A stretch of DNA of 64,000 nt from Octopus vulgaris (Eukaryota): NCBI GenBank assembly GCA_951406725.2, contig OX597818.1, positions 117,738,001 to 117,802,000 on the forward strand, in the 5' to 3' direction. The translations under genes were made by a program, and so were the position numbers. Under the pieces are notes generated by a model, which worked only from the letters and a program-made list of their open reading frames with translations, ran no database searches and had not been told where the DNA came from. Every line of letters begins with the position of its first letter. Position 1 is the first letter of the stretch. Of the stretch, positions 632-63,908 are shown one piece after another.

Positions 632-900
632 AAGGATGAAAAGGAACACACGAGTTGATATATATGAAACAACAAGTCAGGATAGAAAATGCTAAAATAA
701 TTTTATAAAGAACATTTCAGTACCGGTTTCAGCCATTGAGACTTTTTCAACTGTAACAATTAAATAATTAAATTTAGAAAAATTAAAATGAAAGTTTTTT
801 TTTTAAAGAATATTTGTATAGTGTTCAAATATAAGTGGCGTTTTCCTTGTTTCTGCCTGTCTCGAAAGACAGAGACAGTATTTTCTATCCTGACTTGTAT

Positions 901-908
<8 letters not shown>
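632..908 (-). mobile_element. Short non-autonomous element with a minimal hammerhead-like motif and a ~32-bp inverted end duplication
   Basis: 662-693 is inverted relative to 877-908. The HHR-like motif lies at 718-753. A second family member is at 18688-18880. Microsatellites flank it. Confidence 0.65.
718..753 (-). ncRNA. Minimal type I hammerhead ribozyme-like motif, U3/A8 variant core
   Basis: Minus strand reads cag-UUGAAAA-aguc(ucaau)ggcu-GAAA-ccgg-UA-cug: stem I, stem II, palindromic stem III, GUA triplet. Confidence 0.6.
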
Positions 909-989
<81 letters not shown>

Positions 990-1047: not shown

Positions 1048-1829
1048 AGGCGATTGAGTTCATGAAAACATATGTTAATATGCACCACATAAACCTGAAC
1101 TTTATGATACATACGAGAAAAACATTTATATTCAGTAAGGTCTCCGAATATTTCGATGCATGGATAAGATCGTATAACAGGGCGGACATCTGCGATCTTG
1201 CAGGTCTCTATATATTAAATGCGCTACGATCCAAGTTCCTATCTATATTGGCCGATGTCGAGACAATGGGTTGGGAATATCTCAATTCTCTGATGGTCAC
1301 ACTCATGATAAATTTTTGAAAAAACTCATTGATATCTTTTGTCAATTAGGCCTCACAGTCAATGTCACTTCTAATATGTCAGAAATCGATTTTTTAACGT
1401 TTCCCTAGATATATAACCCCGTTCGTATAATCCGAACCACAAACCAAACGAAAATCTCACGCATATATACAAACAGTTTTGTCAGTCCCCTATAGTGTTT
1501 AAACACCTGATATCTAATCGCTACTGTTCTAAAGAAATATTTGATAAAGCAACGCTCTGGTATAACAATGTTCTAGTTAGCAGTGGCTTCAAAGTTAAGA
1601 TACATAGTACCATTCCAAGTAAAAATATGAATAATGAAAATAGAGGCAAAAACAGACCTAGGCAAATACATGGTTCGGTCCCAGCACTTTGCCCTTAAAC
1701 ATTAAAGCTAACGTATCTAAGAAACCTCTGACTCTTTCAGATAAGCATTTCCCAGGATACCATATATACAGAAAGAATTTTAATAGATGCTCGATTGAAA
1801 TATCATAGAGCTACAGTGCCAGTGTGAAG

Positions 1830-6689: not shown

Positions 6690-7471
6690 TCTATAATTAC
6701 TTTGATACTTAGGTGGGTGGAGTTAGTTACTTGCTGGATGCTCTCCATTACGCTCCTATCAGTTTCTAAATTACCGTTACTAGAGTCCGTCTTAACTATG
6801 ATATTAATGTCACCTACATACCTACTGTAGAGCAGAAGAGTTATGTACTGTTCTGGTAAGAATTGCTTAAGTTTTCTGCCGCACCAGGTCATGAAGAGGG
6901 CGGCCACATCTCCAGCTACACCGACACCAATGGCTGCACCTTGAACCTGCGAGTATAGTGTTTTTGTTAAAATTTACTATGTGGTTCTTCAAATTGGTTC
7001 TTACACTGGCCCCTATTGCATATGCAAGCATTTCTTTCACCTGATTTTTGTTCTCAGTGTCTTGGATGGATACGGTCCAGTTACTCCAGCGCTCTGGAGT
7101 GGTGCTTTTATTCACTGCTGAGGTGATTGTGGCTGGTCTTCCCCTCTGCGACCAGGTGATGTAGAATCTATTGATGTCACGGTCGTCTAAATAATCACTG
7201 TCGTAGCTTAGTCTAAGGAGGAGGCCCAGTTCCCTCGTGTTGACCTCACGGAACTCTACTTCACTCTCACAGATTACCTCAATGCATTTCTCCACAGCAA
7301 AATCTATGTCTATAGATGGGTAGAGTGAAATGACATCCATACTACCCGCTACACAACCTGTGAGATCGTTGGAGAGTTTGCAAGTACTGATTTTACTGAG
7401 GACACGCAGACATCTGGAGATATCTTTATGAGAGTCGTAACACTTGTGTGAAATGAAAAAGTTTTTAATGC
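6690..7471 (-). mobile_element. Inverted 782-bp duplicate of the PLE RT fragment at 9026-9807
   Basis: Identical 157-aa ORFs at 6867-7340(-) and 9157-9630(+); ends map 6690<->9807 and 7471<->9026. Confidence 0.92.
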
Positions 7472-8147
7472 TTTTCCAACGAAAAAGTAAGTATTAGCCT
7501 CATCACTTGACCTTCGAAAACTAACAGCTAAACGTCCCTCAAATTATTTTCTCTTGTCTGAATTAAGGAAGGATACATGTGGTAGTACACGCGTCCACAA
7601 AATGGGATTGTCAAAACTGGCATACGTATGATCATAAGGCTGGCATGAGTCTAATAAACAAAGACGATACAAGCAGCAACGACAAAATATCACAAAATAG
7701 CACAAACGACAACAGCCATTTCACGAATGGAGAAAACAAAGCCACTTTGACAATACATATAACGTACACAAAAAAAAAACTCAGTAAATTCTAGTTGTAC
7801 CATAAGCAACAAACATTTTAAAGCGTTTTCAACTTTTAACACCATTAAACAATTGGAACTAACAGTATTTGAATAATGATAAGAGTGTCAGCAGCAATGT
7901 GCAAATATCCTGGCCGAGATATAAATAAATATAGAAATTTTAAAGAATTAGAATGGAAAAAAAAATACCAGCAAAAACTTAAATATAATTATATATACGT
8001 TACAGTAAACTTGAAGAACGTCCGCAAGGATTCTATTATTTAAAGATATGATTCTCAACAATGGTACCAAAGAGAATACGAAGTAAGTGTGCCCTTACAT
8101 ACAAACATACATACACACTTATATATACCCACAAACACATAGATACA

Positions 8148-8944: not shown

Positions 8945-9047
8945 AGATCGCTAACCACTACGCATTCTTTATTTTCTCTCCTTGTTTCCTCCTGTGTTCC
9001 TTTCTGTGGAGAGCGTAGGCTCAACGCATTAAAAACTTTTTCATTTC
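8945..9047 (+). mobile_element. Damaged copy of the CUGUNGA HHR-motif element
   Basis: ccttt-ctgtgga-gagcgtaggctc is retained but GAAA is lost; upstream pyrimidine-rich segment matches the 5105-5290 and 16885-17050 copies. Confidence 0.6.
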
Positions 9048-10800
9048 ACACAAGTGTTACGACTCTCATAAAGATATCTCCAGATGTCTGCGTGTCCTCA
9101 GTAAAATCAGTACTTGCAAACTCTCCAACGATCTCACAGGTTGTGTAGCGGGTAGTATGGATGTCATTTCACTCTACCCATCTATAGACATAGATTTTGC
9201 TGTGGAGAAATGCATTGAGGTAATCTGTGAGAGTGAAGTAGAGTTCCGTGAGGTCAACACGAGGGAACTGGGCCTCCTCCTTAGACTAAGCTACGACAGT
9301 GATTATTTAGACGACCGTGACATCAATAGATTCTACATCACCTGGTCGCAGAGGGGAAGACCAGCCACAATCACCTCAGCAGTGAATAAAAGCACCACTC
9401 CAGAGCGCTGGAGTAACTGGACCGTATCCATCCAAGACACTGAGAACAAAAATCAGGTGAAAGAAATGCTTGCATATGCAATAGGGGCCAGTGTAAGAAC
9501 CAATTTGAAGAACCACATAGTAAATTTTAACAAAAACACTATACTCGCAGGTTCAAGGTGCAGCCATTGGTGTCGGTGTAGCTGGAGATGTGGCCGCCCT
9601 CTTCATGACCTGGTGCGGCAGAAAACTTAAGCAATTCTTACCAGAACAGTACATAACTCTTCTGCTCTACAGTAGGTATGTAGGTGACATTAATATCATA
9701 GTTAAGACGGACTCTAGTAACGGTAATTTAGAAACTGATAGGAGCGTAATGGAGAGCATCCAGCAAGTAACTAACTCCACCCACCTAAGTATCAAAGTAA
9801 TTATAGATTACCCCACTACGCCCCCCCCCCACCAACAATAGACTTCCCGTCCTTGATACTGAACTTTGATTAAAGACTGAACAATAGTGTGCAGCTCCTT
9901 CACTCCTATTACATGAAACTCATAGCTTCGAAATATATTGTTCCCAAGAACTCAGCTTTGTCTCACAACATGAAAATTAACATACTGATAGCAAACTTAG
10001 GACAACGAACAAAGTGTCCCCACTATGAAAACTCTATGAAACGAATATACTTGTACGGAGCTTCATGCCCCGCATGCAATTCTCTGGATATGATCAGAAA
10101 GATAGGGTTCGAGTATACAAGGGCACTAGAAAGAAATTAGAGAACGTTATATGAAATGATACCAGTGGTACCTGTCCTAGATATAGAGACAAAGAATGGA
10201 ATAGGATACAAAGAACTTGTGTCAAAGCAAACAGGATGAACACGTGGTATAAAACCGACAAATATCAAAGAGTGGTGTTTGTAGAGGCCATAGCTCATTG
10301 AGAACTAGGCCGTAGCTTTAGGAAAGCTCTGAATGAGACCAAACTCAACATTAAGATTGCTGAAAAACCAGGAAACTCCATCAGATCAGAACTATGTAGG
10401 ACATATCACTTTGAGAATACCATATGCACCAATGATAACTGCGTGGTATGTAGGATTAACCCAGGCATTAACCGTAGAACTAGAAATGTAGTTTCCAGCA
10501 TAAGATGCATAGAATGTGCTTGTAAAGACATGAACATGATATACATAGGGGAGACATGTGGGAGCATTGCAAAACGATTAAATGAACATTTGAGACAATA
10601 TGACGACAAATAACAGTCCTCCATACTCTACAAGCATGCCAAGGACCAGCATGGAGACAACCTGGGTCAACTTGACATCCGCATTTTATCCAAACACCCA
10701 AAGGACCCAACACTCAGACAAATACAGCAGTACGTCCTCATAAATGAAACTTCTCCAATACAAAATAGGAAATATACATAGTAGATATCATACCCACAGT
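9048..10800 (+). mobile_element. Penelope-like retroelement relic: RT plus GIY-YIG endonuclease, frameshifted
   Basis: GSMDVISLYPSID (RT motif A), QVQGAAIGVGVAGDVAALFM, LYSRYVGDINI (decayed YVDD), LPVLD; from 10425 CTNDNCVVC...NVVSSIRCIEC...IYIGETCGSIAKRLNEH...LYKHAKDQH (GIY-YIG). Confidence 0.9.
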
Positions 10801-13391: not shown

Positions 13392-13621
13392 TATAATTAA
13401 TCAATATAGGGTGGCAAGGAAAATTTTGTAGAATTTTTTTGCCACCAGCGGCCCAGTGGGAAAAAATTAAATAGTCATAGACCATTTTTAAGTTCAACAT
13501 TAACAATTAAGGAACGGCCATAATAGGCCATTCACCCACTAGAAATAACAGCCAAAGCTTCTACCGCAAATAAAGATTAATTCCGTAAACAGGAGAAAAT
13601 TAAAAAAACATTTACCCTGTA

Positions 13622-13728
13622 ATTTCTTGTACGGTATACCGTTTCATCCGCTGTTTAATGGTAAACTAACCTGATTAAATTAAATCAAGCCAATCTTCCA
13701 TAAGCCCTCAGATTCTTCAGCAAGAAAT
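13622..13728 (-). ncRNA. Type I hammerhead ribozyme (left-arm copy)
   Basis: Reverse complement of 14123-14229. Confidence 0.82.
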
Positions 13729-14122
13729 AGCTCAAGTCGGAACAGATATTTACACGAGGCATACCCAACCCTGCCAAGGCAATATCTGACCTAAAATTTT
13801 CAAATCGTCGCACTCGCGCCAAATTTATCGGCAGCAAATAAATATAAGCCGTCGATTCCAATTACGGAATTAACCAAAAAATTCATAATTAATCAATATA
13901 GGGTGGCAAGGAAAATTTTGTAGAATTTTTTTGCCACCAGCGGCCAAACCCTATATTGATTAATTATGAATTTTTTGGTTAATTCCGTAATGGAATCGAC
14001 GGCTTATAATTATTTGCTGCCGATAAATTTGGCGCGAGTGCGACGATTTGAAAATTTTAGGTCAGATATTGCCTTGGCAGGGTTGGGTATGCCTCGTGTA
14101 AATATCTGTTCCGACTTGAGCT

Positions 14123-14229
14123 ATTTCTTGCTGAAGAATCTGAGGGCTTATGGAAGATTGGCTTGATTTAATTTAATCAGGTTAGTTTACCATTAAACAG
14201 CGGATGAAACGGTATACCGTACAAGAAAT
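14123..14229 (+). ncRNA. Type I hammerhead ribozyme with extended stem II
   Basis: Stem I auuucuug/caagaaau (8 bp), core CUGAAGA (14131-14137), stem II base aucug/cggau closing a 58-nt insert, GAAA (14206-14209), stem III cgg(uaua)ccg, GUA cleavage triplet (14219-14221). Confidence 0.85.
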
Positions 14230-14342
14230 TACAGGGTAAATGTTTTTTTAATTTTCTCCTGTTTACGGAATTAATCTTTATTTGCGGTAGAAGCTTTGGC
14301 TGTTATTTCTAGTGGGTGAATGGCCTATTATGGCCGTTCCTT

Positions 14343-14439
<97 letters not shown>

Positions 14440-18687: not shown

Positions 18688-18880
18688 ATTTTCAACTGTA
18701 AATATGGAAAACAATTAAATTTTGGAAAAATTAAAAGTTTTTAAAAAGAATATTTGCGTAGTGTTCAAATGCAAAGTGGCATTTTCCTTCTTTCTGCTTT
18801 GTTTTCCTTGTTTCAGGCAGAAACAAAGAAAATGCCACTTGTATTTGAACATTACGCAAATATTCTTTTAAAAGACTTTT
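18688..18880 (-). mobile_element. Truncated relative of the 632-908 element with a fold-back duplication
   Basis: Matches 744-860; 18733-18797 is inverted at 18817-18880. Confidence 0.75.
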
Positions 18881-19027
18881 CATTTCCGTCTACCAAATCC
18901 TCCCACAAGGCTTTGGTCGGTCCAAGGCTACGGTAGAAGACTTCTGCTGAAGCTGCCATGCAGTAGGACTGAACTCGGAACCATGTTGTTGGTAAGCAAG
19001 CTTCTTACCACACAGCCACTCCTGCGA
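18881..19027 (-). mobile_element. SINE family A, head only
   Basis: Homology to the other copies. Confidence 0.85.
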
Positions 19028-19435
19028 CTATTGCTAAAGTATGTTAAAGTGTTACTATTAAAATATGTAGAAAACTGATCTGTACTACGAAAAATGTAAG
19101 AGTGTATATTTAGAACAGAGAGAAACAAAGATGTCAACCAGAAATAGCTTGTTAGTACCGCCAGCTATCTAGAAAGACATTTATCGGTCTCACATCGTGG
19201 AAGATAAATGAAGATTAAGTAGCTAATTTTTTAAAATTTTATGTTGCCGTATTCACCAATCAAACCGATCGCATTTGCTTACCGGCGATTCTTCCAATTT
19301 CAGCTGGCAAACACACACACACAGGCATACACACATATGCATACACAAATATGCAAGCAAACATGACGTTCACACACACACACACACATAGTCGCACAAA
19401 ATACACACATACTTGCATAGAAATCCAAACATTCT

Positions 19436-37665: not shown

Positions 37666-39270
37666 ATATTTGAGAAACCATTCCTGTAGTCTCTGCTCAT
37701 ATATGGAGTCATGCGAAAATTTGTATATGAACATAAACGTGTCATAACATAAATTCACATTGTCTAGGACATGTATTAGTTATATAATATTTCGCAAAAA
37801 TACATACGTACCCTGAGACAGTGGAACGGTCACTCCATCATTTACGACGGAGATATATATTTGAGAAACCATTCCTATAGTCGGTGCTCATATATGGAGA
37901 GATACGTAAAGTTGTATATGAACATAAACGTGTCATAACATAAATTCACATTGTCTAGGACATGTATTAGTTATATAATATTTCGCAAAAATACATACGT
38001 ACCCTGAGACAGTGGAACGGTCACTCCATCATTTACGACGGAGATATATATTTGAGAAACCATTCCTATAGTCGGTGCTCATATATGGAGAGATACGTAA
38101 AGTTGTATATGAACATAAACGTGTCATAACATAAATTCACATTGTCTAGGACATGTATTAGTTATATAATATTTCGCAAAAATACATACGTACCCTGAGA
38201 CAGTGGAACGGTCACTCCATCATTTACGACGGAGATATATATTTGAGAAACCATTCCTATAGTCGGTGCTCATATATGGAGAGATACGTAAAGTTGTATA
38301 TGAACATAAACGTGTCATAACATAAATTCACATTGTCTAGGACATGTATTAGTTATATAATATTTCGCAAAAATACATACGTACCCTGAGACAGTGGAAC
38401 GGTCACTCCATCATTTACGACGGAGATATATATTTGAGAAACCATTCCTATAGTCGGTGCTCATATATGGAGAGATACGTAAAGTTGTATATGAACATAA
38501 ACGTGTCATAACATAAATTCACATTGTCTAGGACATGTATTAGTTATATAATATTTCGCAAAAATACATACGTACCCTGAGACAGTGGAACGGTCACTCC
38601 ATCATTTACGACGGAGGTATATATTTGAGAAACCATTCCTATAGTCGGTGCTCATATATGGAGAGATACGTAAAGTTGTATATGAACATAAACGTGTCAT
38701 AACATAAATTCACATTGTCTAGGACATGTATTAGTTATATAATATTTCGCAAAAATACATACGTACCCTGAGACAGTGGAACGGTCACTCCATCATTTAC
38801 GACGGAGGTATATATTTGAGAAACCATTCCTATAGTCGGTGCTCATATATGGAGAGATACGTAAAGTTGTATATGAACATAAACGTGTCATAACATAAAT
38901 TCACATTGTCTAGGACATGTATTAGTTATATAATTCTTCGCAAAAATACATACGTACCCTGAGACAGTGGAACGGTCACTCCATCATTTACGACGGAGAT
39001 ATATATTTGAGAAACCATTCCTGTAGTCGGTGCTCATATATGGAGAGATACGTAAAGTTGTATATGAACATAAACGTGTCATAACATAAATTCACATTGT
39101 CTAGGACATGTATTAGTTATATAATCCTTCGTAAAGATACACACGTATCCTGAGACAGTGGAAGAGTCACTCCATCATTTACGACGGAGGTCTATATTTG
39201 AGAAACCATTCCAATAGTCCCTGCTCCTGTATGGAGACCTACGAACTATCACTCCACCCATTACGATGGA
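37666..39270. repeat. Tandem array of a 191-bp unit (8 full copies plus a partial one)
   Basis: gagaaaccattcc starts at 37672, 37863, 38054, 38245, 38436, 38627, 38818, 39009 and 39200; inner copies nearly identical, outer copies diverged. Confidence 0.97.
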
Positions 39271-62260: not shown

Positions 62261-63850
62261 AACTAAATTTAGTCGTTTGTTGTTTTTTATGCTATATTTG
62301 TTTAATATGTTTTTCATTTTGGGGCTTTGTAAGGATATTGGTAGGTTTGAATGTATGGTTTGGAACATGTTGGTAACTCCAGGGTTGTGCATGTTTATAA
62401 AAGGGATAATGTTTTCTTTGTTTTTTGTTTTGGGTGTCCTGAGTTGGTCGATGTCTAGTTTTAATGCTCTTGTGATTCCTTCTATAGGTTTAAGGGGGTA
62501 TTTTTGCTCTTGGAGGAAGTTTTTAAGTTCATCTAGTCTTATTAGTCGTATTTGTGAATCAGTTACTATGCTACATATTTGTCTTGCCATACTATATGGG
62601 ATGTTTCTTTTTGTGTGTGATGGGTGACAGGAGTGGAAATTTAAATATTGGTGTGTGTCAGTTTTTTTTGTAGTGGATGTCTGTTGTGACGATGGAGTTG
62701 TGTATTTTGATGTTGATGTCTAGGAAGGGAAGTTCGTTGTAGCTGGTATCTATTGTGAAGTTGATAGATGGATGCAGCGTATTGAGGATGTTGTGGAATG
62801 TTCGTAGGTCTTCTTCTGATCTGTTCCAAAAGATGAAGCAGTCATCGAGGTAGCGTTTCCACTTTTTCTTGATGTCTTCTTTGAAGTCGTGTTCGAAGAC
62901 TTTCCCTATTTCATCGTATAGTTTGTTCTCCAGGAAACCCATCACCAGGTTGGCATATGAAGATGCGAAGTTTGTACCCATAGCCGTGCCTTTTATCTGT
63001 CGGTATGTCTTGTTGTTGAATGAGAATGTATTTTCTTCGAGTATTAATTGGGTGGCTTGGGTGATAAAGTTTGTCTTGAAGCGTTCATCTATAAGTTCTC
63101 TGTATTTTTCTATCGATTGTTTTATTGCTTCTAGACCTAGGGTGTGTGGTATGTTTGTGTATATATTTGTGACATCAAAGCTTGCAAGTATGGTGTTTTT
63201 CGGGACTGTATTTGGAATGTGTGTGAGGAAGTCTATGTCATCCCTTATGTAGCTTGGTATCTGTGGGCATAAAGGTTTGAGGGGTATATCTATGAAGTGG
63301 CTTAGTTGTTGTGTTGGTACCTGGGGTCCTGCCACTATTGTTCTCATTGTGAGGTCTGCAGGCCTTTGTATTCTTATATAGTGGTTCCTCTGTTCCTTTA
63401 TGGCTCTCTGTATTTCAGAACTTTTATGAATTTTAGGTAATCCATAAAAATTGCTTTCTTTGGTTCTTGAGTTGTATAGATAGTCTTTTTCCTTATCTGT
63501 AAAGGAGTCCTGGTATTTATTAACTAAAGTTCTTATTTTTTTTATTGTTGATTTCTCCGGTGGTGTTGGTTCCTCTTTATAGTATGTCTGGTTGTTCAGT
63601 AACTCCAGTATCTTTTCTTTGTCGTAATCTGTATCCATAATTACTATTGCTCCACCTTTGTCAGCTTCTTTTATAATGATTGACATGTCATTTTTCAGTT
63701 TTTGTAAGGCTTGTTTTTCTCCTCTGCGGGAGATTCTGTTTGCATTTGTGTGTGTGGAGAGGGAATTTGGATATTGTCTCTATGTATGCGTCAAGGTGTT
63801 TGTCACTTCTCGTGTAAGGGCTGAAATGGGATTTTTTTCTTAAGATTGAG
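62261..63850 (-). mobile_element. Penelope-like retroelement (Poseidon/Neptune-type RT), truncated at both ends
   Basis: RT ORF at 62658-63686; frameshift at the T-run near 62662-62669; continues TDTHQYLNFHSCHPSHTKRNIPYSMARQICSIV; no GIY-YIG left. Confidence 0.93.
62658..63686 (-). pseudogene. PLE reverse transcriptase core, 342-aa open segment
   Basis: IIIKEADKGGAIVIMD, FYGLPKIHK, LASFDVTNIYTNIPH, YRQIKGTAMGTNFASSYANLVMG, WKRYLDDCFIFW, LPFLDINI. Confidence 0.92.
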
Positions 63851-63854
63851 TTAT

Positions 63855-63908
<54 letters not shown>

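Follow-up and report, generated by a model that had tools for sequence, protein, structure and literature searches.

The hammerhead unit and its surroundings

The window analyzed here, a 64-kb stretch of the Octopus vulgaris genome, carries a minimal type I hammerhead ribozyme motif on the minus strand at positions 718–753, which was delimited by its exact 36-mer, by shuffled controls, and by a structural scan. The 36-mer occurs only once in the window and was matched in 0 of 100 shuffles. In Hertel numbering, stem I comprises 3 bp (C753-A752-G751 with C720-U719-G718), and the core UUGAAAA occupies 744–750 (U3 at 750, then U4, G5, A6, A7, A8 at 745, and A9 at 744). Stem II (731–743) has 4 bp (743–740 with 734–731, one of them the U·G wobble 741/733) and a 5-nt loop, and G12–A14 lie at 730–728. 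They are followed by the palindrome ACCGGU (722–727, from A15.1 at 727 to U16.1 at 722), which is predicted to form a 6-bp helix III between two copies. From the hammerhead numbering, cleavage would take place 3′ of A17, between 721 and 720 (triplet GUA, H17 = A721). The sequence has the general hammerhead form Y3-U-G-A-N-R8-A, GAAA, and U-H with a Watson–Crick 3–8 pair, which is here U3–A8, and with A as H17. Two traits of the minimal hammerhead consensus are absent, as there is no unpaired base between 9 and 10.1 and as the 10.1–11.1 pair is A–U. Rfam searches of the window at the gathering score and of positions 630–910 at E-values up to 10 returned no hammerhead family. An earlier note on this DNA had described a minimal hammerhead with a UUGAAAA core and all three stems at this place; motif and core are as claimed and stems I and II are present, whereas stem III cannot form in the monomer, where only 2 bp would be left around a 2-nt loop.

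The chance level was assessed by a relaxed scan for minimal hammerheads on both strands of the window in comparison to 40 block-wise dinucleotide shuffles. The scan gave two matches, 718–753 on the minus strand and a second one at +10298. U–A-core matches arose with a mean of 0.3 per shuffled window; strict U–A matches (palindrome of at least 4 nt, stem II of at least 4 bp, stem I of at least 3 bp) occurred in 0/40 shuffles, and strict matches with any core in 1/40. The match at +10298, also with a U–A core, lies inside the reading frame that leads to the CxxC and GIY-YIG sequences of a broken Penelope-like element (PLE) and was rejected as a chance match, because its UGA is an in-frame stop of that frame. 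Solely as a null, a less strict pattern, open to any letter at positions 3 and 8, was run on metagenome data, and the resulting 65 loci had mixed 3/8 combinations (UG 22, CA 16, CG 16, UA 11), with a stem II of at least 3 bp in only four of the 65 and in 0/11 of the U–A ones. None of these loci came from the hammerhead family; their best blastn matches to the unit described below spanned 25–39 nt at E-values of 1e-4 or weaker and were essentially the searched motif or A/T runs, and a metagenome scan with the family pattern gave 0 matches. The sequence at 718–753 is a genuine hammerhead motif that exceeds the chance level.

The motif is part of a unit of about 200 nt that resembles a PLE pseudo-LTR (658–860, minus strand), and it is located 96 nt from the unit 3′ end. 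The 5′ start of the unit is common to three arms in the window, and an extension of 26 nt that resembles a PLE tail (632–657, minus strand) is found on the hammerhead arm only. Head to head with the unit lies an inverted 36-nt copy of the unit 3′ end (877–912, plus strand; 92% complementary to 658–693), with a hairpin at the junction (857–872; z = −3.08, 3/200 shuffles being equally stable). Both flanks are microsatellites in the tandem-repeat listing, (TA)n/(TG)n on the left (494–629) and (TA)n on the right (905–1047), and the window as a whole is microsatellite-rich (157 tandem-repeat rows). A second copy of the unit at 18689–18800 (minus strand) stops after A9 at TA-rich sequence and has an inverted arm of the unit 5′ part (18814–18885, plus strand), which is followed by a dispersed repeat; no hairpin is found at the junction of this locus (18689–18885). 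The truncated minus-strand relative that the earlier note had placed near 18688–18700 is real, as CAGTTGAAAA occurs twice in the window, at the hammerhead and at 18689–18698, where it ends after A9. The alignment of 744–856 with 18689–18797 gave 78% identity. Head-to-head inversion is thus seen at 2/2 unit loci in the window, and neither locus is tandem.

The dispersed repeat of about 150 nt (18878–19031), a putative octopus SINE, is present at about 10 other places of the window with 69–85% likeness. The window further contains a 209-nt near-perfect palindrome at 141–349 (84% to its own reverse complement, MITE-like), inverted arms at 13506–13880 and 13971–14345 (375 nt, 97% complementary, 90 nt apart), and a tandem array at 37666–39237 (191-nt unit, 8.2 copies, 97% matches), in which the relaxed scan found no hammerhead. 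The broken PLE has inverted arms at 6690–7474 and 9023–9807 (785 nt, 100% complementary, 1548 nt apart), and its ORF remains extend to about 10780, with CxxC and GIY-YIG-like sequences. The perfect identity of the arms in an otherwise decayed element suggests a recent conversion or an assembly artefact, and the relaxed scan found no hammerhead near the 3′ end of this element. A U-rich tract at 751–790 (minus strand), whose final CAG forms the 5′ strand of stem I, resembles by eye a 3′ splice site. The intron of D. virilis Penelope ends at the equivalent place (PMC4209133, in the part available), and by analogy splicing could replace stem I here as well.

Constancy of the U3–A8 core in the family

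Relatives of the unit were collected from the contigs of 4 of 24 public runs (four organism labels, four studies) by alignment to positions 680–810 at 80% identity; the first of these runs may be the source of the window itself. The numbers of aligned contigs were 1850, 1760, 1282, and 707 per run, and variant letters were reported from 2% of depth upwards. None of the 13 core positions, positions 3 and 8 included, had an alternative letter at or above this floor in any of the four runs. U3–A8 is therefore a trait of the family and not a decay of the window copy, and the source elements carry U3–A8 for C3–G8, which is what the earlier note had claimed and had proposed to examine by tabulating these two positions. 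The same note regarded the trait as being under selection. Variable places made up 11 of the 115 well-covered positions (709, 710, 713, 714, 718, 725, 731, 733, 735, 743, and 758), and those within the hammerhead were 718, 725, 731, 733, 735, and 743. When the core (0/13 variable) was compared to the other hammerhead positions (6/23), p was 0.052, but p was 0.25 in the comparison to all other positions (11/102). As most family positions are equally invariant, selection on the core is no more than suggested by these data, and the wording of the note goes beyond them.

The variable places are informative with regard to the structure. The U·G wobble at 741/733 is the window copy's own change, since U–A is found in 94–98% of the family depth, and besides 733 this copy also differs from its relatives at 758. 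The 10.1–11.1 pair, which is A–U in the window copy, is G·U or G–C in relatives, with position 743 varying in 35, 6, 61, and 36% and position 731 in 15, 7, 14, and 14% across the four runs. Among the consensuses of loose contig ends, X1 and X6 have a loop II that is 2 nt longer and G at 10.1 while keeping U3 and A8, and X4 has the same longer loop II with C at 11.1; the shared insertion suggests that X1, X4, and X6 represent one subfamily. At least two other upstream sequences adjoin the same core, and the loose-end consensus X2, built from 7 records with an agreement of 0.8, has a different letter at G5. At stem I position 718, 2–22% of depth varies without a reported change of the partner. 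In the CpG of the palindrome, a change at 725 was reported (1–4%), which leaves a U·G pair in the dimer, and a change at 724, which leaves a mismatch, was not; this pattern is a weak hint that dimer pairing may have been kept.

The family shares are weighted by depth, rare variants are lost from contigs, and relatives under 80% identity lie outside the alignment, so that a C3–G8 ancestor would be beyond the view of this analysis; summed contig depth also does not equal copy number. No C3–G8 sister was found among the relatives within 80% identity in the four runs, and 3/8 covariation is for this reason not observable within the family.

Predicted folding and pairing of two copies

Folding energies were calculated with a model that has no term for tertiary contacts of the core. 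With its 2-bp helix III, the active fold of the monomer is disallowed by the energy model, and the stability of the monomer fold does not exceed that of shuffles (z = −0.16). For two copies that pair via ACCGGU, the model predicts a duplex of −8.3 kcal/mol with pair probabilities of 0.74–0.80, and −13.9 kcal/mol for the double-hammerhead geometry. In silico, dimer pairing through the palindrome would hence be favourable. The dimeric cleavage proposed in the earlier note is in line with this duplex and with the literature on related elements, but the hammerhead has no tandem partner within the 64-kb window. No joints were reported in the contigs on 680–810, a 131-nt stretch that is too short for a 200-nt period.

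As H17 is an A, U3 is able to pair with A17 and to extend stem I. For the monomer (−4.4 versus −2.1 kcal/mol) as well as the dimer (−16.1 versus −13.9 kcal/mol), the model gives this alternative a lower energy than the active geometry. In a 201-nt context, the predicted pair probability is 0.01 for stem I and about 0.5 for stem II. The U3–A17 pairing is predicted to be inactive and should damp cleavage, and it mirrors the inactive C3–G17 form that has been proposed for hammerheads with G17 in the accessible part of PMC3884650.

Penelope-like relatives and competing explanations

The available parts of PMC3846280 and PMC8557442 describe PLE pseudo-LTRs that measure about 200 bp, have an adjacent inverted copy, a one-sided tail of 30–40 bp, and palindromes at the junction, and also exist as solo copies. 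The octopus unit is like them in its inverted arm, its one-sided tail, its length of about 200 nt, and its junction hairpin, the latter at one of two junctions. According to Craig et al. (2021, PMC8557442), PLEs of the Hydra clade target (TA)n, and their hammerheads, which often lie about 90–105 nt away from the 3′ end, have a short stem II, a variable 10.1–11.1 pair, and, in 12 of 26 rows, an A at position 17. The (TA)n target, the spacing of about 100 nt, the short stem II, the variable 10.1–11.1 pair, and the frequent A17 are all found with the octopus unit, as are an inverted 5′-truncated copy and a one-sided tail, and several Hydra rows likewise lack the unpaired base and the G10.1–C11.1 of the consensus. 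In contrast, the core is CUGANGA in 34/34 rows of the table in PMC8557442 and UUGAAAA here. The hammerhead of Hydra-1_oBim from Octopus bimaculoides differs in sequence from the motif, and four short motifs of the unit were absent from the octopus entries of the supplement, in which line breaks can hide matches.

By analogy, our best guess for the parent element is a Hydra-clade PLE, and the features that point to this clade are only the target and the hammerhead geometry of the unit, which itself has no coding part. The coding marks of the Hydra clade are RWK and DKT motifs, a CxCX5C linker, and an endonuclease that lacks CCHH. The idea that the unit 5′ part encodes the C-terminal end of a PLE protein was rejected, as protein searches gave no relative: proteins of 71–2000 aa yielded no candidate, which is weak evidence, and none of 120 PLE-type proteins matched. 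No reverse transcriptase (RT) or endonuclease ORF linked to the unit was found. Across the (TA)n from the hammerhead unit lies a decayed PLE RT fragment (about 1048–1810, plus strand), which by eye was likened to the Hydra-1_Obim protein; a Pfam search with a 78-aa piece of it gave no match. Its orientation would suit an ORF that is preceded by an inverted pseudo-LTR. Because 140 nt of (TA)n lie in between and the fragment, which begins within the RT, has decayed much further, it is probably a separate insertion into the same microsatellite. Another PLE-type RT fragment at 62264–63855 (minus strand; Pfam RVT_1, E = 1e-8), the 3′ side of which is cut by the dispersed repeat, has mollusc relatives; among the best 120 of 276 matches, the highest identity (83%, with 61% of the query covered) is to Octopus bimaculoides, which points to an octopod as the probable host.

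The novelty implied in the earlier note is not supported, as the 3–8 exchange itself is already published (PMC3088659, PMC4209133). Perreault et al. (2011, PMC3088659) reported U3–A8 covariation in several natural hammerheads, with activity in vitro in earlier work; in the available part of that paper, these variants share the 3/8 covariation with the octopus motif without a tie to PLEs or a combination of U3 with A17. The statement of the note that U3–A8 is tolerated thus agrees with the in vitro activity, but in the accessible part of a pairwise mutational scan of another hammerhead, only the G3–C8 swap rescued the 3–8 pair (PMC9901934). The closest comparison is with the U3–A8 minimal hammerheads in Cercyon-type PLEs of Schistosoma mansoni, for which about 1,300 matches are given (Cervera and De la Pena, 2014, PMC4209133) and of which row S. 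mansoni(4) of the alignment carries the identical UUGAAAA core. In the same source, the S. mansoni minimal hammerheads are inactive as monomers and weak as dimers and trimers, and PLE minimal hammerheads cleave weakly even with C3–G8. Like the octopus motif, the U3–A8 hammerheads of S. mansoni are minimal type I hammerheads with U3–A8 and a palindromic 15.2–16.2, occur mostly as solo copies, and are proposed to act as dimers. Unlike them, the octopus motif, which is from another phylum, has a 4-bp stem II, no unpaired base before 10.1, a 6-nt palindrome, and mostly A–U or G·U at 10.1–11.1, and its H17 is A, whereas the two S. mansoni U3–A8 rows have U and G. The unpaired base between 9 and 10.1 and G10.1–C11.1 are consensus traits in PMC4209133 that are also absent from its M. 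japonicus row. Cephalopods do not occur in the available part of this alignment and 'octopus' does not occur in the searchable supplements, while supplement file 1 may add species.

The overall explanation that we favor, and consider probable though by no means certain, is a genuine minimal hammerhead in the pseudo-LTR of a high-copy octopod Penelope-like family with weak, dimer-dependent cleavage; in this explanation, we infer the parent element, its transcription, dimer formation, and cleavage. The unit would be the 3′-end pseudo-LTR of a PLE, and the window copy, which has no ORF, would have inserted head to head into a TA microsatellite. Two copies, present on one tandem precursor RNA or meeting in trans, would pair at ACCGGU to form the 6-bp helix III, with an exchange of the 3-bp stems I between them, and the resulting double hammerhead would cut after GUA, between 721 and 720, and trim the element RNA. 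Cleavage is expected to be weak because of the 3-bp stem I, the absence of a visible loop–loop contact, a U–A pair that is weaker than C–G, and the U3–A17 alternative, and the expectation of weak and dimer-dependent cleavage is also based on the S. mansoni assays, the in vitro activity of U3–A8, and the PMC9901934 scan.

Reportedly, Lunse, Weinberg, and Breaker described in 2017 PLE-associated hammerheads with a diminished stem III that cleave as dimers, and these would share the short stem III, the PLE association, and dimer cleavage with the motif analyzed here. Their list may include this octopod hammerhead family, on which we found no literature; the published O. vulgaris repeat paper does not mention 'hammerhead'.

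The explanation to be weighed most carefully against a cleaving hammerhead is that of a catalytically dead relic, in which U3 and A8 were fixed by chance in one source element and trapped as U3–A17, with the unit spreading because PLE enzymes would copy it whether or not it cleaves. We hold this to be unlikely, albeit with several arguments on its side: U3–A17 is favored in silico in the manner of the C3–G17 trap proposed in PMC3884650, most family positions are invariant anyway, Naiad PLEs multiply without canonical hammerheads (PMC8557442, which treats the need for PLE hammerheads to cleave as an open question), and PLE minimal hammerheads cleave weakly even with C3–G8 (PMC4209133). A relic would, however, not be expected to keep its core in subfamilies that differ in loop II length, in 10.1–11.1, and in upstream sequence, nor to have stem II changes that preserve pairing, and both members of the 3–8 pair were changed with retention of a Watson–Crick pair, as in unrelated natural hammerheads. 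That U3 and A8 result from decay of the window copy from a CUGANGA family consensus is hardly conceivable. This copy does depart from its family at 733 and 758 and relatives of less than 80% identity are outside the contig alignment, but C3 or G8 stays below 2% in all of the 1850, 1760, 1282, and 707 contigs, which contradicts decay for relatives within 80% identity, and the second copy (18689–18698) has the same core. A chance resemblance in AT-rich repeat DNA is only marginally more credible. Relaxed U–A matches do occur 0.3 times per shuffled window, the other real match at +10298 is due to chance, and the monomer fold is no better than those of shuffles, yet strict matches are found in 0/40 shuffles, the place of the motif close to the 3′ end of a PLE-like unit and its orientation speak against chance, its stem II variation preserves pairing, and the metagenome matches, in contrast, have mixed 3/8 letters and no stem II of at least 3 bp among the 11 with U–A.

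The nature of the unit could also be different. Retrozymes are tandem repeats with canonical type I hammerheads (PMC7229834), and they have been reported to derive from PLE pseudo-LTRs (bioRxiv 10.64898/2026.07.22.740005), in each case in the part of the source available. A non-LTR retrozyme or another non-autonomous repeat with tandem arrays and circular RNA, rather than a PLE end, would agree with the identical 5′ start of three arms, the lack of a detected ORF, and the reported PLE origin of retrozymes. Head-to-tail units with canonical type I hammerheads are, however, not what the window contains, since 2/2 loci are inverted head to head and the motif is minimal, and we regard this assignment as improbable. 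A more speculative extension of the preferred dimer-dependent hammerhead, on which we would place little weight at present, is that U3 functions as a built-in switch that pairs either with A17, which extends stem I and inactivates, or with A8 in the active form, so that a dimer or a protein would release cleavage.

What is new here is an octopod U3–A8 family with Hydra-clade-like geometry and a predicted U3–A17 trap, whereas the swap itself was known. In the parts of the literature available, the only two points for which we found no precedent are the U3–A17 trap and the probable parent of the Hydra type. An abundant octopod PLE-type family thereby joins the lineages with a U3–A8 hammerhead core, which is of modest import in itself, and such a family escapes searches for CUGANGA as well as the Rfam models. 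If the switch were true, core-encoded self-inhibition in a very high-copy cephalopod family would represent a hammerhead that is regulated in nature and on which the need of PLE ribozymes to cleave could be tested. The combination of a weakened core and a predicted U3–A17 trap in a family that has nevertheless spread widely permits a direct test of whether PLE hammerheads must cleave: strong dimer cleavage would point to a function, and no cleavage would point to PLE ribozymes as passengers.
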